From a virus (lineage: Duplodnaviria > Heunggongvirae > Uroviricota > Caudoviricetes), in IMG/VR virus record IMGVR_UViG_2534681705_000018, positions 1 to 14,535 of that record: a DNA stretch of 14,535 nucleotides; one strand, given 5' to 3'. The position numbers and the translations under genes are program-made. Of the stretch, positions 816 to 14,535 are shown piece after piece; positions within the stretch are counted from its first letter, which is position 1, and the number at the start of each line of letters is the position of its first letter. Below the pieces are notes generated by a model that saw only the letters and a list, made by a program, of their open reading frames with translations, was not told the DNA's origin and made no database searches.

Positions 816-2426
816 CTATTTAATTCCCTCATCATTGATAAGGTTGGACATCTCTTTCAACATGAGAGTCATTGAAGCTTTCGACCAATTTAGCGGAATG
901 ATAGGGCTTGGCGCTTCATGCAAAGTTCCCGACTTGTGGATATAGTTATAGCTTTCGGGAAGTGCCATTTCAGGTACACTCCTGCCATTTGCACCAATCA
1001 TATTCTCGCCTGTTATTTGGGCCAATGATCTATTCATAAATTGCACTGAGTCATTCAAATACTCTTCCTTTCTTGATTCTTTATAAACAATTGCTGCTGA
1101 TTTTGCATACCATGAGTCAAAAAACCATTCTGCTTCTGTTGATGGAATGAAGCTCTTTTCTCTTTTCGCATGTGAATTTTGATCGGTATCGGTTTTAATA
1201 TCATTGAACCAAAAATTTGCCGACTGATAATTATCCTTCTCGTATCTTTTTATACCATACGGACCTGCTAGTTTTTTAACTATTTTTAGAACCTGCTCTT
1301 TTCTTCTGGTGTTTATCTTTGCAAGATTTGCAGGATAAATAACATTAAGTAAAGCCGCATCGGCTTCTCTGTAATGTTTATCTTTTTCCAGATAACCTGG
1401 GGATTCTCCCCCTAAATCAAGCTGTAACGTTATTCTTTCATAACCTTTATCTATGAGGTGGTTCAACCTCGTTGTTGAAAGAGGTTCATCCAGTTCATTG
1501 GCTTTAGCTTCGCGTAGTAAATCAGAGACAAAAACAGAGTCTTTCTTCGAGAGTAAGTTCGACAAACGTTCCAGTCCAGAGGTCACCAGTGCAACGGAAG
1601 ATGTGTTTAATCGGGCATCTTCTTCCCATGCTCCGGAATCTTCCATAACATAGAAATTGGCTTTATCCAGATAAGCAATCAGCAGCGCAACCGATTTTAA
1701 TCGGTCACCTTTTTGCCAATCTTCAGCGTTAATTGTATCAGTGTCGATTGCTTGTATAAGGAGATCAAGATAAAGACCTAACGCATCATTTTGTTTATGG
1801 TTCCACAGCTGCGGCTTGCCTTCTTCCTGCACATCTGCCATCACGGGGGAGTTGCTGTCAAATCGGATATGCACAACATTCATTTGCCCGGGAACTCCAT
1901 CCAGTCGTTTGGGGTTGCTAATGACGTCCTGCATTCGCTTAATCTGGTCGGGCGTAGACATATAATCCCACAGGGTGAGCAGAACCTTTTTTGCGGCTAC
2001 ACTATTTCCCTGATCTGATACTAATGCCATATAGCCCCATAAACTATCCCTCAGCCAGACAGCATCATAGTGGGTTTCTGCCGCTGTTTTGTCATCTTCG
2101 AAAGTAGAAGCAAGAATAAACGTTCCCCAGGGTTTCTCCGTCAACGTTAACTTTCGTGTGTTTTCTGTTAATGTTAGCAATCCTTGAATTTCGTCTTTGG
2201 TATAGTGGCTCTTTATTTCATTTTGTAATTTGGCTGAGTGAATCAAAAGACGATAATTAGGATACTTATCTGGATTTAACGATAAATAACTTTTATCTGT
2301 TGCTGCCCCCGTGGAATTAAGAATGTTAAATACAGATTCACTCGTCACTTCTGCCCCTGTCGCCTGGCATGTGCCGCACGAAAATATACCAGCGAGCAGA
2401 AGAGTTAATGCAGATTTCCCTTTCAT
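816..2426 (-). CDS. Secreted glycoside hydrolase family 15 (glucoamylase-like) protein.
   Basis: The ORF as drawn (816..2468) starts at a GTG. An internal start, MKGKSALTLLLAGIFSCGTCQA|TG (ATG at 2426), gives a classic signal peptide. GH15-like motifs are present: YDAVWLRDSLWGY and the catalytic-type GAWEED. From memory, a GH15-like gene or pseudogene (ygeQ) lies next to glyU in the E. coli ETT2 remnant. The gene was not recognised from its sequence, so no symbol is assigned. Confidence 0.7.
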   Translation of the reverse strand: MKGKSALTLLLAGIFSCGTCQATGAEVTSESVFNILNSTGAATDKSYLSLNPDKYPNYRLLIHSAKLQNEIKSHYTKDEIQGLLTLTENTRKLTLTEKPWGTFILASTFEDDKTAAETHYDAVWLRDSLWGYMALVSDQGNSVAAKKVLLTLWDYMSTPDQIKRMQDVISNPKRLDGVPGQMNVVHIRFDSNSPVMADVQEEGKPQLWNHKQNDALGLYLDLLIQAIDTDTINAEDWQKGDRLKSVALLIAYLDKANFYVMEDSGAWEEDARLNTSSVALVTSGLERLSNLLSKKDSVFVSDLLREAKANELDEPLSTTRLNHLIDKGYERITLQLDLGGESPGYLEKDKHYREADAALLNVIYPANLAKINTRRKEQVLKIVKKLAGPYGIKRYEKDNYQSANFWFNDIKTDTDQNSHAKREKSFIPSTEAEWFFDSWYAKSAAIVYKESRKEEYLNDSVQFMNRSLAQITGENMIGANGRSVPEMALPESYNYIHKSGTLHEAPSPIIPLNWSKASMTLMLKEMSNLINDEGIK

Positions 2427-2659
2427 AAAATATTCCATCAATCGTTTGTTAAAAGCGTAGATAACCACTTATTTAACAACTTGAAAATAAGGTGTTTTAC
2501 CTGGGTTGTTACAAAAGGATTGCATTGCGTAAACGCTTTTTATTTACAACAAAATGGGGAAGTATTACGGCGATTGCGAAAAGTCTGAAGCGATTGAATT
2601 AAGATAATATAGAAAATCAGATACAGCAAAAATGGCAGATTGATCAGGTGAAGATAAAT

Positions 2660-4053: not shown

Positions 4054-4725
4054 TCACCCTTCTTTTTCCAGTTGAGCCAGCCGCCCGGATATTTCTTCCA
4101 GTTTTTCCAGGGCTGGCTTGCAGGCCGCATCAATAACATCCCGGACCATTCCGGCAAGCTGCTCTTCTGCTGTCGGCGTTGTTACTTCCACACCCGATGG
4201 TTTCCCTCCCTTATCCCATACACCCAGCGGTACGAGGGCAACGTGATCGATAAGAAATGGCGTACCCTCAATGACAAAATTGTCCTCGCCCATTACATCA
4301 GGAACTTCTGCCCCACCGGACGCACCACAAAACACAACCGACGGGCTGGTGGATACCTCCCCCCGGGCTTTCTGGATGTAATCGATGATTTCCTGCCCGT
4401 AAATCCGGCATACGCCCCACACCTCGTCATCGCGAATATACGGCAACATAACGGTGCCAATAATGCGCGACCGTTCGCCCACGTCTTCAATGGTTTTGCC
4501 TTCGGGATGGTCGATAATGACGGGTACTCCGGCGCAACGTTCCAGGAACTGCGGATTGAGATAAGTTTGCGGTGAACGCCAGACAAATTCTTTTTCTTCG
4601 GCGCGGTAGGCCATTCCGGTTCCTGTGATACGCAGGTTAACCAGCCACATGTTGGAGAACTGATAAGGCGACGGTAGCTGACCGTCCCGAATCTGCTTCG
4701 CCGCCTCAATTTCTGTTAAAAGCAT
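4054..4725 (-). CDS. Phage prohead protease/scaffold-like protein (DUF2213/XkdF-like pattern).
   Basis: GVPVIIDHPEGKTIEDVGERSRIIGTVMLPYIRDDEVWGVCRIYGQEIIDYIQKARGEVSTSPSV resembles the His...Gly...Ser core pattern of HK97-type prohead proteases. The C-terminus is coiled-coil-like (LEKLEEISGRLAQLEKEG). Assignment is by eye only. Confidence 0.45.
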   Translation of the reverse strand: MLLTEIEAAKQIRDGQLPSPYQFSNMWLVNLRITGTGMAYRAEEKEFVWRSPQTYLNPQFLERCAGVPVIIDHPEGKTIEDVGERSRIIGTVMLPYIRDDEVWGVCRIYGQEIIDYIQKARGEVSTSPSVVFCGASGGAEVPDVMGEDNFVIEGTPFLIDHVALVPLGVWDKGGKPSGVEVTTPTAEEQLAGMVRDVIDAACKPALEKLEEISGRLAQLEKEG

Positions 4726-4749
4726 AATGTTATCCGGTTATAAGCAATA

Positions 4750-4773
4750 AGCCCCGCCAAATCCGGCAGGGCT
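4750..4773 (-). other. Intergenic GC-rich hairpin between the two morphogenesis-like genes.
   Basis: The minus strand reads AGCCCTGCC ggattt GGCGGGGCT: a 9-bp stem with one U-G pair, followed only by a weak U-tract (TATTGCTT). It could be a partial terminator or an mRNA stabiliser. Confidence 0.35.
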
Positions 4774-4789
4774 GAACTCAGCACGTTTT

Positions 4790-5368
4790 TCATGCCCCCG
4801 CGAGGCTTGCAGTGTTAATTTTGACCAGGCGACGGGGAGGGATTTTGAAGGCGTTCAGCCAGACGTTCGGATCGCCCTGATATTCAGTAATACGACGACC
4901 AGCTTCATCCATTCTTACGGTTTTACCCAAATGGCCCGGCGTGTTTTCCACGGCCCACTGAGCACTTTCCTGAGCAGCCTTGTAAATCTGATCTTCCAGC
5001 ACCGCCAGCGTTGCAGAATCTGAAACGGAACGAATATCCACATCACTGAATTTTTTAGCCAGCTTCTGTGCGCCAATTAATGCACGCTTGCGGTAATCCA
5101 TCGACTTTTCACCAGCAAACGGGGCCGGAGCTCGACGGCCCATATTGCTGTATGCGGAATCCGCTTTAGCCTGGGCTTCTGCCAGTGAGGATTCATCTTC
5201 GACTGACGCGACGATGTTTTGATTAGCGTTATCCTCTTTTATGAAATCCTGTGCGGGGATCGCATTCAGAATTTCGATAATCTCCTGCGGAGTGCTGCCC
5301 TGCGACTCTGACAGAGCGTTAACCACCTCCATCAGTTTTAATCGCAAATCTTCTTTGCTTGCTGGCAT
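4790..5368 (-). CDS. Hypothetical structural or scaffold-like protein (192 aa).
   Basis: The ORF-track start at 5377 is a GTG that sits inside the SD GAGGTGG. The likelier start is the ATG at 5368 (MPASKEDLRL...). The N-terminal half is acidic and helical. No family recognised. Confidence 0.6.
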   Translation of the reverse strand: MPASKEDLRLKLMEVVNALSESQGSTPQEIIEILNAIPAQDFIKEDNANQNIVASVEDESSLAEAQAKADSAYSNMGRRAPAPFAGEKSMDYRKRALIGAQKLAKKFSDVDIRSVSDSATLAVLEDQIYKAAQESAQWAVENTPGHLGKTVRMDEAGRRITEYQGDPNVWLNAFKIPPRRLVKINTASLAGA

Positions 5369-5407
5369 TTTTACCACCTCTCTTTTTTCACCAAAAAATC
5401 ACGACCA

Positions 5408-5581
5408 TCAGGCCGGACGTTCTACGGGATAAAGCGCCCGCTGCATTAAACGCCGGGCGACCTCATGAATGCTCGGAGCAATCCCCAGCGGAGAATTGCG
5501 GCGTTCCTCGTCCTGGATGCGCTGTAATGCTTCAATCTGATCACGAGCGAGTAAAACGGGTTTCACGCTGGCTTTTCTCAT
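5408..5581 (-). CDS. Ribbon-helix-helix (Arc/CopG-like) DNA-binding protein.
   Basis: MRKASVKPVLLARDQIEALQRIQDEE...SIHEVARRLMQRAL fits a beta-alpha-alpha RHH pattern. AGGAG lies 8 nt upstream of the ATG at 5581. Alternative starts are at 5587 and 5605. It is the first gene after the double terminator. Confidence 0.5.
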   Translation of the reverse strand: MRKASVKPVLLARDQIEALQRIQDEERRNSPLGIAPSIHEVARRLMQRALYPVERPA

Positions 5582-5705
5582 AGTCATATCTCCTGAACAA
5601 AACAATGATTATGATTGCACAAACTGAAATGACGATCTACATCGTTGCAATTTATGAAACGATAACGCATGATGATCGCGTTCTTCCCATTGACTTCAAT
5701 CACCT

Positions 5706-5745
5706 GAAAAACAAAGCCCGCAACACTTCTGGCTGCGGGCTTTTT
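5706..5745. terminator. Bidirectional intrinsic terminator.
   Basis: Stem GCCCGCA (5716-5722) / TGCGGGC (5734-5740) with an 11-nt loop. The tail is TTTTT on the plus strand and TTTGTTTTT on the minus strand. Confidence 0.65.
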
Positions 5746-5751
5746 ACTGGC

Positions 5752-5777
5752 ACAAAAAAGCCGGGAAAAATCCCGGC
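5752..5777 (-). terminator. Intrinsic terminator 5 nt after the PerC-like gene.
   Basis: The minus strand reads GCCGGGA tttt TCCCGGC followed by TTTTTTG. Confidence 0.75.
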
Positions 5778-5782
5778 CTCCG

Positions 5783-6070
5783 TCACTGACTGCAATTTTT
5801 CGATCCAGGGTATTTCCTGAATGCCTTACCATTGGGCTGATGTAATCCCATCCCGGCATGTGCCCGGCTGATGGTTTCGCGCATCTCCCCGAAATTATCC
5901 TGCCGTGCTGGTGGGCGTGCTGCCTTGCGGATACATTCCGCGCGACGTTTTGCCGCCTGTTCCCGTGCCTTGTCATCATTCGCCAGCATGATGACCTCAG
6001 CCCACCGCGCCGCCGCTCTCCGGTACAGACCACGCGCTTCCAGTGCTTCCGCTTTGCTGTCGTGAATCAT
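5783..6070 (-). CDS. PerC-family transcriptional regulator-like protein.
   Basis: AEALEARGLYRRAAARWAEVIMLANDDKAREQAAKRRAECIRKA matches the PerC/Pch core (LE..G.YRRAA.RW...RR..C). The start overlaps the upstream stop (ATGA). Confidence 0.7.
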   Translation of the reverse strand: MIHDSKAEALEARGLYRRAAARWAEVIMLANDDKAREQAAKRRAECIRKAARPPARQDNFGEMRETISRAHAGMGLHQPNGKAFRKYPGSKNCSQ

Positions 6071-6597
6071 GCGCCTGTTTTCTCCCTGGCTGCCCGGCGC
6101 TGACGTTTGCGCTTCTCATTCAGCGCTACCAGCCGCGTTTCTGCGTCCTGTTGTTCCTGTGGTGTCACCTCGCCGCACGGCTGGCCTTTCAGGTCGTAGC
6201 GTACCCCACCAGCCATTAAGGCGCGGTAATAGCGCGGACACTGCGCATAAGATGCCAGCGTCGCACGTAATGCCCCTGGCCCGAATGCCAGCCCCCTGAC
6301 GGCGAGATCCTGCATCAGGTCGTCGAATATCCCCACCTTAAGCGGCTTCGGTGCTTCCCGGCTGAATAATTCAGGCCACAACTCAGTGAGGCGGTTAACG
6401 CGCCTGCGGTTTTTGCGCTGGCGCTTGGTCATATGCCGCCACGGTGTCGCCCCTGTGGGCTTCTGCTGCGCTTTCTGGTTACCGGGCATCACTTTATGCG
6501 CCGACGTGGTTTTATCCTGCTCCTGTGCCGCCTGCGTCGTTTTCTGCGGCGTGCCATAAATGCCTTTCGGTTTTCTGTTAATGGTCAGCTTAGTCAT
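6067..6597 (-). CDS. FinO/ProQ-domain RNA-binding protein with a basic, Q/K-rich N-terminal extension.
   Basis: LTELWPELFSREAPKPLKVGIFDDLMQDL...LRATLASYAQCPRYYRALMAGGVRYDLKGQPCGEVTPQE parallels the ProQ N-terminal (FinO) domain (FP.CF....PLKIGIFQDL...LR.AL..Y....YL......R.DL.G.PCGE). The start is chosen at 6597 because of the ATGACTAA overlap; an alternative ATG is at 6609. Confidence 0.8.
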   Translation of the reverse strand: MTKLTINRKPKGIYGTPQKTTQAAQEQDKTTSAHKVMPGNQKAQQKPTGATPWRHMTKRQRKNRRRVNRLTELWPELFSREAPKPLKVGIFDDLMQDLAVRGLAFGPGALRATLASYAQCPRYYRALMAGGVRYDLKGQPCGEVTPQEQQDAETRLVALNEKRKRQRRAAREKTGA

Positions 6598-6937
6598 GCT
6601 TTGCCCCATCGTTTTTACTGATTATTTCATGCCCGGAACTTTCATCTACCGGATACCACGCAAATGATCCAGGTTCATCAGAAAGAATGAATTTTGTGTT
6701 TGGCAAATACATGCATTCGTAAAAACCATCTTCCTGATGATACGGTGCCATTCCATACTCACCAGTAAGAATCGGTAATATTTCAGAATAAATTTCTGAA
6801 TCACCAGAATAAAACACATCACAAATCGCCCATGCTGCAATCGGACTATACCAGTCGTTGCCATTATCATTCCTGAATTTTGCCCACCAACCCTGAACCG
6901 CTGGCGAAATATTTTTGGGTATAGCTTCAAGAAACAT
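6590..6937 (-). CDS. Orphan hypothetical protein (115 aa, acidic, Trp/Tyr-rich) in an AT-rich segment immediately after the origin.
   Basis: AAGGGGG lies 4 nt upstream of the ATG. Hand-counted GC for 6661-6720 is 21/60, against 39/60 for 6121-6180 in the next gene. No family recognised. Confidence 0.6.
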   Translation of the reverse strand: MFLEAIPKNISPAVQGWWAKFRNDNGNDWYSPIAAWAICDVFYSGDSEIYSEILPILTGEYGMAPYHQEDGFYECMYLPNTKFILSDEPGSFAWYPVDESSGHEIISKNDGAKHD

Positions 6938-7010
6938 ACAACCCCCTTTGCAACTCTATTTCTATAATTTCGTGATAAAAATTCCAATTATTCACACTAT
7001 TCCATTTTGA

Positions 7011-7290
7011 TTGTGAACAGTCGTGAATAGTTAGTGAACAGTTTTTTAATAACTGTTCACTATGTTTTTTAGTTTAAAATCATATGGTTATTTTGTTTCA
7101 GTGAACAGTTGAACAGTTACCCCCTATAGAATTTAATTTGCAGTGAAAATGATTCACTGTTACAAGTTACAATGCGTTTTAAAAGTTTTAGCCGAAACTG
7201 TTCACGGCGTTCATTTCGTCGATGAATCCAGTAATGACGCAGCTTTTAGAGGTGAACACTACTGTTCACCACTGTTCACCACTGTTCACT
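7011..7290. repeat. Iteron-type origin of replication.
   Basis: GTGAACAG is at 7013, 7034 and 7101. Its complement CTGTTCAC is at 7053, 7198, 7262, 7272 and 7282; the last three form the tandem (ACTGTTCACC)x3. One-mismatch variants are at 7023, 7109 and 7252. The copies flank AT-rich stretches and sit directly downstream of the primase-helicase gene, overlapping its stop. Confidence 0.75.
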
Positions 7291-9058
7291 TTTCATGGAT
7301 TTTTGGCACAGCGGGTAACCATTCATTAGCACTGTCAGCCAGCTCCATGTTGTAGCGCATTCCGACATTGGTCTTTGCCTTCTTATACTCAGCCCCATAT
7401 TCTTTCATCACTTTTGGGAAATCTTTGCCAAAATTAGTTAGATTTAATGGCTTATCGAAACCATAAGCATCCATATATGCAAGATATGCATGGTAAAGAT
7501 AAATTCGAGGGGCTCTTGGATATATATTCAGGTTTCCCATGAACATTCCTACAGCTTCACCAAGTTCGACAATATGGTTACAAAAAGCATATAGCGGATC
7601 AGTATGGCGTTTTACTTCCATTGCTTCTTCACCATCACGTTGCTCGAGCAGTAATGTTCTTGCTTTTTCGGGATCTGAAAAATTTACCAACAGCCTACGG
7701 ACTATTACCGGAATTTCCGCTGCAATTTTTTTGGGTAAACATGTGTCCTTGTTTTCTTCCGCTATCGGATTATTGAACTGAAAAATAACCCTACGGCGTG
7801 AAATACCTCCCGCTCTTTCTGTAAAAACCATCGGTTTATTATTTGTTATCAAAACAACTGAGCGTAAGACAGTGGTGTATCTTTTTTCATATTTCGGGTT
7901 AATTTGCAGAGGATCCCCACCTGTTATAGCTTTAATACCATTACCTTCACCAAAATATTTAGGTTGGTCCGGTAAAATAATCAGACTTTTACCAACTAGT
8001 TGCTCACGTCCACCAGCATCATCTAACGCTTTCATATCACTGCCTGCGGTGTTCTGCTCACCCGCCAACATTCTGGCAATTTGAGTAAACATACTTTTAC
8101 CACTTCCACCTTCGCCAGTTGCTTCAATGAATAATTGCCAGTCGTAGCGATTAGCCAAAACCATAAACAGAGCAGCACATATCCGCTTCATCTTTGATGA
8201 ATCGTATCCTGCTGCATGTGACAGCCAACGATGAAAATGGGGCGCATGGTCATGAATATTTTCACCAGGCGCAGGTGGCGTATAATAAATTCCATTATGC
8301 GAAGTGATCCAGTGCTCTGGTGAATGAGGTAAAAATCTACCACTTGTTATGTCATAAACTCCATTTTCAAAAGGTATTATGGTGTCACTCTGTTCTCTCA
8401 TTACGGGTACAGATATTTTTAAAGCATCAACCGCATTACTAATTGCCCGCTTACTGAAATTTGTCTTGTTTTTTTCGTAAATTGATACCATTTTACGACT
8501 CAACTCCATATCAGATATTTTTTCCCACACTCCAGAACAGTATGCATAAGCAAAATTGTTACCAGGGTGAACAGCTATTTCCTCAAAGCATTCAGCCAAA
8601 AGTGAAGCTCGCTCGTTATCCGCCATTCTGGAAAGAGAGATTTTGTGTTTTTTCTCAGTCCTTCCTGACAGAATATCCCCGCGCTCTGCCTGTTCGCGGA
8701 TCCGTTGCAGGTAATCGCGCCAGTTCTCCGGTTCCCGGTCGGTGATGCCTTTGTATAATTTCGCCTCCTGTACGCCAGCCAGCGCCAGCTTTTCAGCGAT
8801 AGCATTGATCTGGATTGGTTCGATCTCCCCCGCGAGATAGACACGCGCAAAGCGGCGTTTCTCGTCAATAATGCGGATATTCGCCAGGTCTGCCAGTTGC
8901 TTTGGCCCCAGGTAAACAGGTGGTACGTTATCGCCGTGTTTTCGTCCTTCGCTTTCAATCCAGTGTTGAGCATGGGAGTAAGCGTCCGTCCCGGCAAAAA
9001 TGATTACCTCGGTGAATTTATCCTTCGGCTGATATTTTAAATTCGGTGCGTTTTTCAC
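7286..9058 (-). CDS. P4/D5-family primase-helicase (replication initiator, SF3 helicase).
   Basis: Walker A is GEGGSGKS and Walker B-like is SLIILPD. A D5_N-like region precedes them (IPFENGVYDITSGRFLPHSPEHW). The start is a GTG overlapping the upstream TGA (GTGA), with GGAGGT 5 nt upstream. The first internal Met is only at about codon 154. Confidence 0.85.
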   Translation of the reverse strand: MKNAPNLKYQPKDKFTEVIIFAGTDAYSHAQHWIESEGRKHGDNVPPVYLGPKQLADLANIRIIDEKRRFARVYLAGEIEPIQINAIAEKLALAGVQEAKLYKGITDREPENWRDYLQRIREQAERGDILSGRTEKKHKISLSRMADNERASLLAECFEEIAVHPGNNFAYAYCSGVWEKISDMELSRKMVSIYEKNKTNFSKRAISNAVDALKISVPVMREQSDTIIPFENGVYDITSGRFLPHSPEHWITSHNGIYYTPPAPGENIHDHAPHFHRWLSHAAGYDSSKMKRICAALFMVLANRYDWQLFIEATGEGGSGKSMFTQIARMLAGEQNTAGSDMKALDDAGGREQLVGKSLIILPDQPKYFGEGNGIKAITGGDPLQINPKYEKRYTTVLRSVVLITNNKPMVFTERAGGISRRRVIFQFNNPIAEENKDTCLPKKIAAEIPVIVRRLLVNFSDPEKARTLLLEQRDGEEAMEVKRHTDPLYAFCNHIVELGEAVGMFMGNLNIYPRAPRIYLYHAYLAYMDAYGFDKPLNLTNFGKDFPKVMKEYGAEYKKAKTNVGMRYNMELADSANEWLPAVPKIHEK

Positions 9059-9345
9059 TTCTTACCTCCCGCAACCAACATTGCCCGGATTTTTTTAATA
9101 TTCGTGGCTGCACGTCTCGCCACCGCCTGTTGTTTGTTTTCCACCAGAATAAAATCACGCTCAAACTGACGGCGCGGCATTACGCAGTCATATTCGTAAG
9201 CCTCACGGCGGTAGGTGATATTGCCTGGCGTAACGTGACGAATAACCACTCGTCCCCCACGTCTGGTGTCGCGGTAAATATCTCCGTGTCTGATTTCAGG
9301 CCGAGCGGGGCCGCTGGCAGTAAAGCCAGAATTTTTCTTTTTCAT
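9055..9345 (-). CDS. Small basic hypothetical protein (96 aa); possibly a DUF4222-type prophage protein.
   Basis: ORF track. Tightly packed in the operon, with its stop overlapping the primase start. The family assignment is from memory only. Confidence 0.55.
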   Translation of the reverse strand: MKKKNSGFTASGPARPEIRHGDIYRDTRRGGRVVIRHVTPGNITYRREAYEYDCVMPRRQFERDFILVENKQQAVARRAATNIKKIRAMLVAGGKK

Positions 9346-9550: not shown

Positions 9551-9908
9551 GATTCACCCCCTGAATAACCTGATAACCGCAACTGGTCAGCAATTCGATA
9601 AATTCCGGCAATGTGCCGAAACAGTAATCATCACGCAGACGTTCGCGGGATACTTCAACGCCGTTTTCGTAGTGACTCACCATGCGTCCGGTAAAATGCA
9701 GATCATCATCGTGATGGCACGTTAACGGCTTAATCAGTCGCGCACGTTCTGCCAGTTCCAGCAATGCTTCAACGCTTCCGGCAATTGCACCATCCGGCAG
9801 GTTGTAATTACGCACTATGCGCCCGTTCTCCACATGGACCAGTAGCTGCCCGGTAAATTTCTCGTCAAACTGAATGCGGTTAAGGTCGGTAAGTGACAGG
9901 TTAATCAT
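9543..9908 (-). CDS. Hypothetical protein (121 aa) with two copies of the FTG repeat domain.
   Basis: The start overlaps the Icd-like stop (ATGATTAA). The two internal copies are EKFTGQLLVHVENGRIVRNYNLPDGAIAGSVEALLELAERA and LHFTGRMVSHYENGVEVSRERLRDDYCFGTLPEFIELLTSC. Confidence 0.65.
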   Translation of the reverse strand: MINLSLTDLNRIQFDEKFTGQLLVHVENGRIVRNYNLPDGAIAGSVEALLELAERARLIKPLTCHHDDDLHFTGRMVSHYENGVEVSRERLRDDYCFGTLPEFIELLTSCGYQVIQGVNHG

Positions 9909-10104
9909 GGCGTACCTCCTGACGAATACGGGCGGCGAATACCATCACGCAGCCATCAGGAGATTGCTGGCGTGCTTCCTGTTCGCTGGTGGCCTCGATG
10001 TGAATCACGCGCGGTTGTGCCGTGCTCAGAGCGATAAAACGCCAGATGTATTTATTCAGGTTGTGCGAGTCCCGCCCTTGCGGGTGTGTGGTATGATTTC
10101 TCAT
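9901..10104 (-). CDS. Host cell division inhibitor Icd-like protein (67 aa).
   Basis: MRNHTTHPQGRDSHNLNKYIWRFIALSTAQPRVIHIEATSEQEARQQSPDGCVMVFAARIRQEVRHD. The pattern IEATSE.EAR....FAARI recalls Icd-like proteins of P4-type elements. It has its own SD (GAGG, 5 nt upstream of the ATG at 10104). It lies in frame at the 3' end of the 402-codon ORF. Confidence 0.6.
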   Translation of the reverse strand: MRNHTTHPQGRDSHNLNKYIWRFIALSTAQPRVIHIEATSEQEARQQSPDGCVMVFAARIRQEVRHD

Positions 10105-11109
10105 AGCTACCTCGATAATCTTGCTATCGTTGGTGGTTAGAAGCTCTGCGAGTGGTAACGACACTTGCGGGGCTTTGCCTTTAAGGTGCAAGTCACCTTT
10201 GAGGGTTATGCTACTTTTAGGTGACTTGCACTTCAAGCCTTTTTTTATTTTTTTTTCTACGTATACTGAACGCCACCTAACAGTAAGGAGGCCAGTAATG
10301 CCAACGGGTACAACCAACAACAAATCACAACAAAAAACGGCTAGAATCCCTCTAGAAGTTTTAAGCGAAATGAATTTGGTCAAAGAGGAAAACGAAACAG
10401 ACGCGCAGTTTATCGTTACAGCCATGCGTGGCGAGATCAAACGCCGCCAGCGCCGCAAGGCCAAAGAACAGGAGTAACCATCACCAGCGCCGTGGTGTGA
10501 GGAACTACGGTGCATCGTTTTACAGGGCAGCGCCATGACCAACAAAGAATCAACCAAAACACCATCACCAACTCGTAAGAGACGACGCAAAAATATAGCG
10601 CATGAACATGAATCAGAAAGATTCGCACCTTGTTCGTTTGCTCTTGAGAAATTCCTTAAAGAGCACAGGAAAAAGCTCTCGTTGCAAACCTTGGAACGAA
10701 CCAAATCTGACTGATCACATTGCCCACCAGCCGCAAATGTGGCATTGTTGGTGATGCGTTCAAGTATGTAGCTTTTCCACTGGCGGCTCTCTGCGGTCGC
10801 CTTTGTTTTATCCAGAACGAAATCAGACATCAGATTGATCAGCACCTGGCGACCTGACAAAATCGCATCAGTCGCGCCACCAGCAAAATTTTTTGCTTTC
10901 CGGACAGCGTGGCCAACGATATTTTGCAGCAAAATATTCTGCATTTCTGGCGTGCTGTGGCGACGGTGATCAGCGCCTTCACATTGAACGAACTTGTCGC
11001 TAAAATTCACCCACATAGCAAACATCGCGGTGCTGTAGGTAATTCGTTCACAAAGGCGCTCCGGCAACGGGGCGCTTTCTCTTTTTGTAACGGTCAGAGC
11101 GTTACACAT
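9901..11109 (-). CDS. 402-codon ORF as drawn, probably composite. Only the first ~140 codons (about 10690-11109) look like a genuine protein.
   Basis: The ATG at 11109 overlaps the antirepressor stop (ATGTGTAA), which suggests translational coupling. The N-terminal part looks protein-like. The middle ~200 codons are Cys/Ser/Leu/Arg-rich and cross the operator hairpin, a T-run and the antisense of the SD-bearing RHH gene. The last 67 codons are the Icd-like gene. Confidence 0.35.
   Translation of the reverse strand: MCNALTVTKRESAPLPERLCERITYSTAMFAMWVNFSDKFVQCEGADHRRHSTPEMQNILLQNIVGHAVRKAKNFAGGATDAILSGRQVLINLMSDFVLDKTKATAESRQWKSYILERITNNATFAAGGQCDQSDLVRSKVCNESFFLCSLRNFSRANEQGANLSDSCSCAIFLRRLLRVGDGVLVDSLLVMALPCKTMHRSSSHHGAGDGYSCSLALRRWRRLISPRMAVTINCASVSFSSLTKFISLKTSRGILAVFCCDLLLVVPVGITGLLTVRWRSVYVEKKIKKGLKCKSPKSSITLKGDLHLKGKAPQVSLPLAELLTTNDSKIIEVAMRNHTTHPQGRDSHNLNKYIWRFIALSTAQPRVIHIEATSEQEARQQSPDGCVMVFAARIRQEVRHD
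10185..10232. promoter_or_regulatory. Paired palindromic operators forming a 13-bp perfect inverted repeat in the divergent control region.
   Basis: GTGCAAGTCACCT (10186-10198) and AGGTGACTTGCAC (10219-10231). Each arm is itself GGTG-N5-CAC(C). The centres are about 34 bp apart. The repeat lies between the Icd-like start (10104, minus) and the RHH start (10298, plus). Confidence 0.55.
10298..10477 (+). CDS. Ribbon-helix-helix protein (59 aa), transcribed divergently from the replication operon.
   Basis: A consensus SD, TAAGGAGG, lies 7 nt upstream of the ATG at 10298. KTARIPLEVLSEMNLVKEENETDAQFIVTAMRGEI fits the RHH pattern and is followed by a basic tail. TATACT lies about 30 nt upstream. 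Confidence 0.55.
   Translation: MPTGTTNNKSQQKTARIPLEVLSEMNLVKEENETDAQFIVTAMRGEIKRRQRRKAKEQE
10535..10714 (+). CDS. Possible small basic protein (59 aa), below the ORF-track cutoff.
   Basis: Hand translation gives MTNKESTKTPSPTRKRRRKNIAHEHESERFAPCSFALEKFLKEHRKKLSLQTLERTKSD. It is in the same plus frame as the RHH gene, separated by a single TAA. The SD is weak. It is antisense to the long minus ORF. Confidence 0.3.
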   Translation: MTNKESTKTPSPTRKRRRKNIAHEHESERFAPCSFALEKFLKEHRKKLSLQTLERTKSD

Positions 11110-11950
11110 GGCTGTTTTCCTCCATGCGACGGGCTAACCAACGCTGCGAAAGACGAATTAATTCAGCCTTCCGCTGGTGGTAGTCCTGGCCTAACTCAAT
11201 CAGCGTGATATTGCTCTGCTCAAGGTAAGAAAGGTGCTCAAGCTGCAACGTGCTCATGTGGTCGCGTGGTTCGCCTGTAATGCCGTTCGCCAGTGCCCAC
11301 TGTTTTGCAGTCATGCCACCCAGCACGATACGCGCCAGCATGTTCGCTTCCGTGGTGTAGTGGTGCTGGAGTGTGTTTTTACCCAGTTCAGCCCGGTACG
11401 CCTCCAGCGCGGCACACATTGGCTTAAAGTAGCTGGCAACTGTGATACGGGCTTTCAGTTCCCGGCGTAACGCTGCGGAACGCACTGGCGCTACCTTGTG
11501 TAGCTCCTCCTCGCATTTGATAAAGTACTGGCGAACGGCGCGGCCCTGTTCGGTACGTTCGACCATCGCCAGTTCTTTCGCCATGTTCGTGGAGATCAAA
11601 TAGTCTTCACTGCGACGATCACCGCCGCGCTTTGTTGTCCAATCAAAATCAAACTGTTCAATATTTACACTTTGGTTCCCCCGTTTCGGGGAATCAAAGT
11701 ACAAATTTTCTACAACTTCAAAATCCACGCCATTTTTAAATCCGTACTCATCAATACGTCCTTTAATCCAGGTAGTGAAATCACGGCCTACCCCGAGCGC
11801 CTTATGCAACGCTCTGGCGCTAACAATATTGGTTTCACGCCCGCCAATAACGCCGGAAATAACCGGGATAATTTCGCCAAAATTTTGCAGATTCTGGTTT
11901 TCAGGCCGAACGAAGCCCTGCCCCTGTACGGGCGTTTTTCGCAGTTTCAT
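11102..11950 (-). CDS. Phage antirepressor, AntA/AntB N-terminal domain family.
   Basis: NIVSARALHKALGVGRDFTTWIKGRIDEYGFKNGVDFEVV and DYLISTNMAKELAMVERTEQGRAVRQYFIKCEE are typical AntA-domain signatures. AGGAG lies 5 nt upstream of the ATG. Confidence 0.75.
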   Translation of the reverse strand: MKLRKTPVQGQGFVRPENQNLQNFGEIIPVISGVIGGRETNIVSARALHKALGVGRDFTTWIKGRIDEYGFKNGVDFEVVENLYFDSPKRGNQSVNIEQFDFDWTTKRGGDRRSEDYLISTNMAKELAMVERTEQGRAVRQYFIKCEEELHKVAPVRSAALRRELKARITVASYFKPMCAALEAYRAELGKNTLQHHYTTEANMLARIVLGGMTAKQWALANGITGEPRDHMSTLQLEHLSYLEQSNITLIELGQDYHQRKAELIRLSQRWLARRMEENSHV

Positions 11951-12028: not shown

Positions 12029-12226
12029 TCAGGTAGCTGTTCCGCGTGATTCAGCAATACGCTGATTAATCCACTCGTCAATTTCACTCTCAACGAAAGC
12101 AATCGCTCGCGAGCCAATTTTAACTGATGCAGGAAATTTACCTTGCCCCATAAGGCGATAAATCCATGCCTTGCTATATCCAGTTCTACGCTGAACTTCC
12201 GTTAAACGAATAAGCGTATTTGACAT
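12029..12226 (-). CDS. alpA: AlpA-family (CP4-57 regulatory protein-type) HTH regulator or excisionase.
   Basis: LIRLTEVQRRTGYSKAWIYRLMGQGKFPASVKIGSRAIAFVESEIDEWI is the canonical Phage_AlpA pattern. GAGG lies 8 nt upstream of the ATG. Confidence 0.9.
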   Translation of the reverse strand: MSNTLIRLTEVQRRTGYSKAWIYRLMGQGKFPASVKIGSRAIAFVESEIDEWINQRIAESRGTAT

Positions 12227-13320: not shown

Positions 13321-14535
13321 TCACCCGCATTTTCCGAACTCACCATGCACCACATTTCCGCCATGCTCGAGCGAATCCATATAGTCGGCATACCACTGGA
13401 GCATCTCCCGGCGACCATCCAGATATTGCGCATGGTTGTATGTGCCACGAATTGAGTTTTTATCGACGTGTGCGAGCTGTGTCTCTATCCACGCGGTGTT
13501 ATAGCCCTGCTCATGCAAAATGGTGCTCATGGTGTGCCGGAATCCATGACCAGTAACGCGCCCGGCATAGCCGATACGACGAATGAGCACATTCATCGCC
13601 ATTTCACTCATTGGCTTACTGTGGTGAATACGACCGGGGAAAATAAACTGATACTGGCCTGTCATGTTTTTTAACTGCTCCAGTATTTTTATCGCCTGTT
13701 CTGGTAATGGCACACAATGCGGACGGCGCATCTTCATTCGTTCTTTAGGCACTTCCCACAAACGATTATCAAAATCGATCTCCAGCCATTCTGCCTGCCG
13801 TAATTCCCCGGGTCTGACACCTGTCAGAATTAATAGCCGCATTGCCAGTTTGACGATCTGGCTTCCGGTGTACGTATTAAAAACGCGGAAAAATTCCGGC
13901 AGTTCGTCGGCTTTCAAATAGGCGTAATGCTCTTTTTTATGTGGAGCAAATGCGCTCACCAGGTCAGGGGCTGGATTATATTCGGCGCGTCCGGTGATGA
14001 TTGCGTACCGGAACACCTCGCCGCATCGCTGGCGAACCTTACGCAATTTTTCAGTCGCACCACGGTCATTAAGACGGGAAAGAACCGCCAGCAATTCCAT
14101 CGGCTTAATTTCTGCGATCGGCCTACCGCCAATGTACGGAAAAACATCTTTTTCAAACGTCTCGATCATTTCCTCGGCGTATGACGATGACCACCTGTCG
14201 ATCCGCTTTTCGTACCATTCGCGAGCAATACCCTCAAAAGTATTGCCAAATTTGCTCGCCTGTTCTCGCTTTTGGGCTTTTCTGGCCTCACTTGGATTTA
14301 TACCACCAGCAAGAAGCCTTTTAGCCTCATCCCTTGCCGCCCTGGCATCAGACAGAGACACATCAGGGTATACCCCCAACGACAACATTTTGGGCTTTCC
14401 TGCAAACCTGTAGCGCAGTCGCCACCCTTTCGAACCGTTCGGCTCAATGAGCAACGAAAGCCCGTTACCGTCATTGAGTGTATAAGCCTTTTCTTTCGGC
14501 TTCGCGCGCCTGATGGCAAGGTCTGAAAGCAGCAT
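13321..14535 (-). CDS. int: P4/CP4-57-type tyrosine integrase (tRNA-targeting family).
   Basis: The N-terminal arm-binding-type region is LSDLAIRRAKPKEKAYTLNDGNGLSLLIEPNGSKGWRLRYRF. Catalytic-region motifs are TGVRPGELRQAEW, HGFRHT and IRGTYNHAQY. This is the full 404-aa ORF, and the window ends on its ATG. Confidence 0.95.
   Translation of the reverse strand: MLLSDLAIRRAKPKEKAYTLNDGNGLSLLIEPNGSKGWRLRYRFAGKPKMLSLGVYPDVSLSDARAARDEAKRLLAGGINPSEARKAQKREQASKFGNTFEGIAREWYEKRIDRWSSSYAEEMIETFEKDVFPYIGGRPIAEIKPMELLAVLSRLNDRGATEKLRKVRQRCGEVFRYAIITGRAEYNPAPDLVSAFAPHKKEHYAYLKADELPEFFRVFNTYTGSQIVKLAMRLLILTGVRPGELRQAEWLEIDFDNRLWEVPKERMKMRRPHCVPLPEQAIKILEQLKNMTGQYQFIFPGRIHHSKPMSEMAMNVLIRRIGYAGRVTGHGFRHTMSTILHEQGYNTAWIETQLAHVDKNSIRGTYNHAQYLDGRREMLQWYADYMDSLEHGGNVVHGEFGKCG

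Follow-up and report, generated by a model that had tools for sequence, protein, structure and literature searches.

The window analysed here, a 14,535-nt stretch of viral DNA (IMG/VR record IMGVR_UViG_2534681705_000018), is a phage-inducible chromosomal island (PICI), that is, a phage satellite, of the E. coli type. Between its replication origin and its packaging genes lie three genes: orf115, which encodes a 115-aa protein, a gene for a FinO/ProQ-domain protein and a PerC-family gene (hereafter the FinO and PerC genes). Comparison with related islands indicates that FinO and PerC are a conserved core pair of the satellite, and that orf115 is one alternative occupant of a recombination-prone slot in front of them. 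PICIs transfer virulence and defence genes among enterobacteria, and the regulation of Gram-negative PICIs beyond AlpA is poorly understood. The parts of the trio are ordinary. Public databases already contain each of the three proteins in exactly this sequence, two under family names and the first as 'hypothetical protein'; the domains are known and annotated, the FinO-PerC pair is annotated in RefSeq, and the presence of PerC in PICIs has been published (PMC6092414, PMC11773190). What is new is the place of the FinO-domain gene in the conserved core of one large group of E. coli satellites. Also new are the mosaic nature of the slot in front of it and the finding that orf115 represents a tiny satellite-specific family whose predicted fold matches nothing known. 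For experimental work, the resulting map of the slot separates the core genes from the optional ones.

Distribution of the FinO-PerC pair and the slot in front of it

A megablast search with positions 5600-7300 recovered the FinO-PerC segment from 321 of 5426 complete E. coli genomes (~6%), always on the chromosome, and 6 of these 321 genomes also covered orf115. Homology with other islands begins at 5752 or at ~6073 and stops 9-53 nt upstream of the FinO start codon, indicating that FinO-PerC is a cassette with sharp borders. We further collected from IMG/VR 70 independent contigs that encode this FinO protein at 71-99% identity. All 70 contigs have the same gene order, namely a replicase, an optional small gene, an optional gene for a single-stranded DNA-binding protein (SSB), FinO, then PerC or an 82-aa protein (p82), and finally a packaging module. 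The gene after FinO is PerC in 51 of these loci and p82 in 18. The replicases next to the pair belong to five types, and there are several kinds of packaging module.

The slot in front of FinO is mosaic. Across the 70 islands it is either empty or taken by one of four or more small genes that are unrelated to one another, and SSB may be present or absent; this agrees with the original prediction that variable genes reside directly after the replication gene and origin. Of the 65 IMG/VR loci that extend to the replicase, the slot was empty in 30 and held SSB alone in 9, while the 85-aa gene was present in 10, orf115 in 7, an 83-aa gene in 5 and a 257-aa gene in 3, each of them with or without SSB. 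In one complete genome, L7_E1373_ETEC, the slot contained a cluster with an SDH-type serine protease, adjoining a transposase fragment. The idea that only the first gene would vary between islands did not hold, as SSB is optional, p82 replaces PerC in capsid-forming islands, and both flanking modules vary. We also considered the 85-aa slot gene of the known island EcCICFT073 as a diverged orf115 and rejected it (hhalign probability 0.1).

The L7_E1373_ETEC locus keeps, at its positions 5845-5900, a 53-nt 3' remnant of an orf115-type gene that is still joined to the FinO leader. The remnant adjoins the transposase fragment and the protease cluster, in which the protease has a Clp fold and is accompanied by two small genes. 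Judging from this arrangement, the remnant is a trace of cargo replacement.

Within the window, all three open reading frames lie on the minus strand and overlap as had been claimed (Table 1). The orf115 stop and the FinO start share ATGACTAA, and the FinO stop and the PerC start share ATGA. For FinO, the ATG at 6597 was favoured over an in-frame upstream ATG at 6609 on the basis of the RefSeq annotation and the Shine-Dalgarno position. These overlaps suggest that translation of the trio may be coupled. The position of the trio after the origin was likewise confirmed, by the eleven GTGAACAGT iterons of the adjoining replication origin. The GC contrast between orf115 and its neighbours is real, but it had been put too high at ~35% versus ~65%. 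Over whole genes it is 40% versus 58-59% (39.9% for orf115, with 33% at third codon positions, 59.1% for FinO and 57.6% for PerC), and extremes of 38% and 64% are reached only in local stretches of 200 nt.

The trio had also been described as a self-contained unit closed by two consecutive terminators. Directly after PerC we did find a predicted pair of hairpins with U-runs, T1 and T2. The 91-nt terminator region folds at -41.4 kcal/mol, compared with -25.7 +/- 3.3 kcal/mol for shuffled sequences (z = -4.8), and 0 of 200 shuffles folded as well. T1 travels with the FinO-PerC module and T2 with the downstream packaging module. The tandem is kept in 29 of 89 loci, being confined to islands with one type of packaging module and degenerate or absent elsewhere, so the trio is not generally a closed unit. 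At the other end, the minus strand showed no sigma-70-like promoter in the stretch from the origin to orf115. Therefore, the term self-contained is supported for the 3' end only.

The three proteins and their families

The orf115 protein is acidic (pI 4.3, with 18 D+E versus 6 K+R) and contains 16.5% aromatic residues. Its description as an orphan is refuted, since an exhaustive profile search of 1.84 billion representatives returned 22 clusters. A distant DNA search located orf115 in 21 of 5426 E. coli genomes, where its alleles fall into three classes. In all contexts that we examined, which came from Escherichia, Xenorhabdus, Photorhabdus, Morganella and Providencia, orf115 comes first after the satellite primase and origin; the protein also occurs in a Salmonella record. 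The placement is kept with D5-type, DUF927-type and CFT073-type primases, and with or without SSB and FinO. Comparison with other alleles gave a dN/dS of 0.22-0.40 at a dS of 0.7-1.3, and the FinO genes of the same island pairs have a dS of only 0.09-0.35, far below that of orf115. These values indicate that orf115 is a constrained coding gene and that its alleles are much older than the neighbouring cassette. The original prediction depended on the 115-aa reading frame being conserved as a coding sequence, and purifying selection of this kind is what we observed.

As for its function, profile searches with orf115 gave no match in Pfam, NCBIfam or PADLOC and solely a family of unknown function in PHROGs, and a tblastn search of phages gave no match. 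AlphaFold2 reached a pLDDT of 53 with 7 close sequences and 87.7 with an alignment of 18 sequences. The latter model predicts a confident all-beta domain at residues 1-100 (pLDDT 87.7) and a disordered tail at residues 101-115, and no resembling structure was found among solved or viral predicted structures. The tail is encoded by the conserved FinO leader DNA. In addition, a 152-aa representative (P0019) seems to run from an orf115-type C-terminal tail into a distant paralogue resembling another representative, P0017, which suggests that some islands may carry two tandem members of the orf115 family.

The assignment of the middle gene was upheld by Pfam PF04352, which matched residues 68-172 at 84.1 bits (cut-off 27, 8e-24). 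The protein, identical to WP_001421985.1, has a basic N-terminal tail of ~60 residues, the domain at ~62-167 and a short basic C-terminus (pI 10.7). Its sequence matches in the Protein Data Bank (PDB) include the ProQ N-terminal domain (5nb9, 5e-12), FinO (1dvo, 2e-10), NMB1681 and RocC. In the alignment to 5nb9, it keeps the equivalents of ProQ K35, R58, R69, Y70 and R80, residues to which studies of ProQ and RocC assign roles in RNA binding. The NCBIfam subfamily cut-offs were missed for both FinO (PRK13754, 64.3 bits versus 136) and ProQ (PRK04950, 57.5 bits versus 127), and the identity to plasmid FinO is at most ~41%, indicating that the protein belongs to a separate satellite-borne subfamily. 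Relatives in phages and on plasmids are distant only; on plasmids the identity over the domain is at most 41%, a ceiling that leaves aside records resembling chromosomes. Within satellites the gene has a dN/dS of 0.05-0.18.

The FinO/ProQ RNA-binding domain is common to the window protein, FinO of F-like plasmids, FopA of pCol1B9 and ProQ. The likeness to plasmid FinO extends to the basic N-terminal extension and to being encoded on a mobile element, whereas the linker and the Tudor-like C-terminal domain of ProQ are missing. Unlike all three, the window gene is satellite-encoded and adjoins a PerC gene. In the literature, such a gene is touched on briefly in a single genomics paper from 2026, and we found no experimental work on the satellite FinO-domain gene. 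The idea that PerB of enteropathogenic E. coli (EPEC) is a FinO-domain protein, which would connect perB-perC with this pair, was dropped; among 40 of the 956 plasmid matches, chosen as a spread sample, no EAF-type plasmid occurred, which is no real test.

The third assignment also passed the profile search, with Pfam PF06069 matching at 111.6 bits (cut-off 22.6, 2e-32) over profile positions 1-89 of 90 and phrog_994 at 8e-36. The protein is a small, basic, full-length match to the PerC family, like PerC of the EPEC EAF plasmid, Pch of the prophages of enterohaemorrhagic E. coli (EHEC) and EcCIMP1_025. In contrast to PerC and Pch, it is encoded in a satellite, by a gene whose start codon overlaps the stop codon of a FinO-domain gene. 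It is 53% identical to the PerC of EcCICFT073, its exact sequence occurs on at least 1000 contigs, and sequenced phages gave two weak matches only.

In capsid-forming PICIs, p82 (phrog_1957) follows FinO in the place of PerC, as seen at 4740-4988 of one locus and in the 18 IMG/VR loci mentioned above. No Pfam match was obtained for p82, and BLASTP found no similarity to the CFT073 PerC, the window PerC being outside that comparison. In the IMG/VR sample, wherever the range of a p82 locus includes a capsid gene, p82 adjoins the capsid module; PerC in no case adjoins it.

Directly downstream of PerC, a region with a weak promoter-like site precedes the packaging operon. Two to three TTGCA(A/T) repeats are found upstream of homologues of the 57-aa gene, from E. 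coli to islands of Xenorhabdus, Photorhabdus and Morganella, and from its sequence the region looks like the operator of a conserved regulator. Because of this proximity, we considered PerC as the activator of the operon and set the idea aside, since the repeats are kept in Morganella and Xenorhabdus islands that have neither PerC nor FinO. A regulator other than PerC must therefore read this region.

Candidate RNA partners and possible roles of the trio

Proteins with a FinO domain recognise hairpins of the terminator type that carry a 3' tail. Where such proteins of mobile elements have been characterised, they work together with a cis-antisense RNA from the element itself (PMC9977716). In this regard, three partners had been proposed within the island, the hairpin at 10186-10231, the terminators at 5706-5777 and the alpA leader hairpin, the last of which falls mostly beyond the flanks covered. 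The 10186 hairpin was rejected, being present in 8 of 89 loci only. The terminators, T1 and T2, stay as second candidates in spite of the restricted occurrence described above. A scan of the whole window gave a further candidate, a predicted cis-antisense RNA with a promoter-like site (10 of 12 matches) followed by an 11-bp GC-rich terminator hairpin, which is antisense to codons ~7-32 of the early-strand reading frame starting at 11109. Three diverged sequence classes keep a -10 box (TAAAAT, TATAAT or TGnTATAAT) 72-77 nt from the terminator end. The 11-bp terminator is almost invariant across these classes, and the residues that the opposite strand encodes at the -10 box vary from class to class.

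Sequences resembling the antisense candidate were present in 393 of 5426 E. coli genomes, mostly without an annotated feature; strains cq9 and 83972 carry the element at 99-100% identity. The exact core was found in 6 of the 8 IMG/VR FinO loci with alpA in range. No Rfam family, C4 included, matched the region, and no paper on the element was found. With its predicted promoter, intrinsic terminator and length of ~75 nt and its antisense position over the 5' part of an early reading frame, the candidate would resemble FinP/traJ and c4/icd-ant of phage P1, although C4 itself is set apart by the lack of the Rfam match. Better conserved than the 10186 hairpin, it is the best available candidate ligand of FinO, a link that we infer.

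The reading frame opposite the candidate is an uninterrupted one of 402 aa (9901-11109, minus strand), whose start overlaps the stop of the antirepressor gene (ATGTGTAA). It has no Pfam match, and only its C-terminal part is annotated as Icd-like in RefSeq. Its middle lies opposite two small genes of the plus strand (10298-10477 and 10535-10714); one of these corresponds to the YlcI/YnfO-family gene annotated by RefSeq in the sister island. Its N-terminal peptide ...SAPLPERLCE... is conserved across islands.

The explanation that we consider best overall, and that we hold tentatively, is that the trio belongs to an early, replication-side unit of the PICI, in which FinO tunes satellite transcripts and PerC acts in the satellite or helper cycle. 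The trio would be the 3' end of this transcription unit and, because no promoter was detected upstream of orf115, would be reached by transcripts from the alpA/primase operon that read through the origin. The FinO-domain protein would bind the hairpin and U-tail 3' ends of satellite transcripts, as its relatives do. By analogy with FinO-FinP-traJ and FopA-Inc-repZ, such binding could tune the life-cycle genes of the satellite itself at the post-transcriptional level, with the predicted antisense RNA over the 5' part of the frame after the antirepressor gene as the best candidate ligand and T1 and T2 as second candidates. PerC would serve as a small transcription factor in the satellite or helper cycle rather than activate the LEE (locus of enterocyte effacement), and orf115 would exert its effect at the stage of replication or interference, as a binding protein. 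If FinO does pair with the predicted antisense RNA, post-transcriptional control would be added to satellite biology, and the FinO paradigm would extend from plasmids to phage satellites.

Several points weigh against this explanation. Read-through across an active origin is an assumption. Related Morganella and Xenorhabdus islands, which keep orf115 and the packaging-promoter motif, lack both FinO and PerC, indicating that neither gene is essential to the satellite plan, and in some islands PerC is a frameshifted pseudogene. In the antisense hairpin, 0 of 11 pairs have compensatory changes. Since the antisense candidate lies inside a conserved early-strand reading frame, protein coding could explain part of its conservation. 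It is also carried by EcCICFT073, which has no FinO gene, so its presence is independent of FinO. Finally, its 3' end is ~20 nt short of the target start codon, so the RNA would leave the ribosome-binding site uncovered, unlike FinP. We regard as unlikely a bolder proposal, in which the FinO chaperone and the ~75-nt antisense RNA form a FinOP-like switch that gates the early operon (the Icd-like gene, the primase gene and later genes) and controls induction or copy number, and in which orf115 founds a new-fold family binding a helper-phage or host factor.

The pair could also be host-directed cargo ('morons'), with PerC acting on virulence or other regulons of the host and FinO acting as a ProQ-like chaperone on host small RNAs, even in the uninduced state. 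PerC and Pch activate LEE1 in EPEC and EHEC (PMC11773190), some PICI-coded PerC homologues are said to activate the LEE (Fillol-Salom 2018, PMC6092414), and ProQ-type proteins readily take on foreign RNAs (PMC9977716). The GC content of the pair (57-59%) also differs from that of the primase gene (~43%). The PICI homologues with published effects on LEE1, however, offer little support for the original suggestion that the island rewires host virulence. EcCIMP1_025, the homologue of EcCIMP1, is a repressor that silences LEE1-lux in Citrobacter rodentium (PMC11773190), which does speak for an action on the host. The PerC-like genes of EcCIEDL933 and EcCICFT073, the latter encoding the protein that is 53% identical to the window PerC, had no effect on LEE1 fusions, according to the passage of PMC11773190 that cites Porter 2005. 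Moreover, the pair has a fixed internal position, overlapping start and stop codons and no detected upstream promoter, so life-cycle genes fit better than cargo, which sits at the far end of such islands. Its carriers include enterotoxigenic E. coli (ETEC) as well as animal and environmental isolates, in which the LEE would not be expected. Taken with the other points, a host-directed role of the pair appears rather improbable to us, and we retain the tentative assignment of FinO and PerC to the satellite and helper cycle.

For orf115, and perhaps for the whole trio, we also weighed a phage-interference, immunity or anti-defence cassette that acts against helper or competing phages or counters host defence, as variable genes after the origin do in staphylococcal islands, and judged it quite unlikely. 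The variable slot with several mutually exclusive small genes would suit such a cassette, and so would the high divergence of orf115 alleles beside a nearly identical FinO gene. Like many phage inhibitors, the protein is small, acidic and aromatic-rich, with a predicted fold without match, and Gram-positive PICIs hold interference genes in the post-origin region, as stated in PMC6739421. Yet the purifying rather than diversifying selection on orf115 overall argues against it, and PADLOC-DB gave no match to the trio proteins at E <= 1, nor, at E <= 0.01, to the alternative occupants of the slot that were tested. In the cloning experiments described in that paper, the post-origin genes of EcCICFT073 cloned singly, except rppA, left lambda plaques unreduced. 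By RefSeq annotation, the genes cloned there would include the 85-aa slot gene, SSB and PerC, and orf115 was not among the genes assayed. Neither these experiments nor the PADLOC result supports the immunity or defence role originally proposed for the slot. Similarly little probability attaches to orf115 being a satellite replication accessory factor, for instance by partnering the primase/helicase or SSB, in which case the slot would be part of the replication module and not cargo.

The island and its other features

That the element is a phage satellite, as the original prediction held, was borne out by its gene content, its domains, its iteron origin and the int-alpA RNA match. The island has an integrase, alpA, a primase-replicase with an adjacent iteron origin and a single gene orientation. 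It also has a packaging-redirection module, neither lysis nor tail genes, and a size within the range of about 10-15 kb expected of Gram-negative PICIs. The order on its one strand is integrase, alpA, antirepressor, Icd-like gene, DUF4222, primase, origin, the trio and a capsid/packaging-interference module. A 98.4% identical copy of the island is present in E. coli ETEC1748, where it adjoins tRNA-Gly.

EcCICFT073, which has been studied more than any other E. coli PICI, and its relatives in E. coli (Fillol-Salom 2018, 2019) follow the same plan, with int, alpA, an Icd-like gene, DUF4222, a primase gene, an iteron origin, small genes, PerC and packaging genes. Unlike the window, EcCICFT073 has an 85-aa protein, SSB and PerC after its origin, without a FinO-domain gene or orf115. 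Its packaging part differs as well, with capsid, decoration and RppA genes in place of the genes for the 57-aa, 195-aa, DUF2213 and helix-turn-helix (HTH) proteins of the window.

Table 1 Features of the window with their positions and strands.
Feature	Coordinates	Strand	Remarks
orf115	6590-6937	-	115-aa; optional first gene after the origin
FinO/ProQ-domain gene	6067-6597	-	176-aa
PerC-family gene	5783-6070	-	95-aa
Terminator T1	5752-5781	-	hairpin 5756-5781 and U6, directly after the PerC stop
Terminator T2	5704-5743	-	12-bp hairpin 5713-5743 and U-run; T-run on the plus strand too
Packaging-operon promoter-like region	5582-5665	-	TCGTCA-16-CATAAT; TTGCAA/GTGCAA repeats; ATG of the 57-aa gene at 5581
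Packaging module after PerC		-	57-aa protein, 195-aa protein, DUF2213 protease-like protein, HTH/TerS-like protein
Replication origin	7013-7289		eleven GTGAACAGT iterons in both orientations; 29-34% GC; between the D5-type primase gene and orf115
D5-type primase gene	7286-9058	-	~43% GC
DUF4222 gene	9055-9345	-	
Candidate cis-antisense RNA	10978-11088	+	promoter-like site 10978-11006; hairpin 11053-11078 and T-run; predicted ~72-77 nt
AntA/B antirepressor gene	11102-11950	-	
alpA	12029-12226	-	
int-alpA RNA motif RF02996	13210-13277	-	Rfam 47 bits versus gathering score 35.8
Integrase gene	13321-14535	-	

The Rfam scan of the window returned, besides the int-alpA motif, just sub-threshold look-alikes of terminators. 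The motif follows directly after the integrase stop and extends over the start of a 275-aa reading frame. In the packaging module, the 195-aa protein and the 223-aa DUF2213 protein (4054-5377, minus strand) match positions 409-545 and 115-328 of phrog_6216, respectively. From these matches, the two may be a split form of one 545-residue phage head-protease or scaffold-like protein. Beyond the packaging module, a 550-aa reading frame (816-2468, minus strand) has a hydrophobic, signal-like N-terminus and lies in DNA of 34-45% GC; its appearance is that of accessory cargo lying either at the island's far end or immediately outside.

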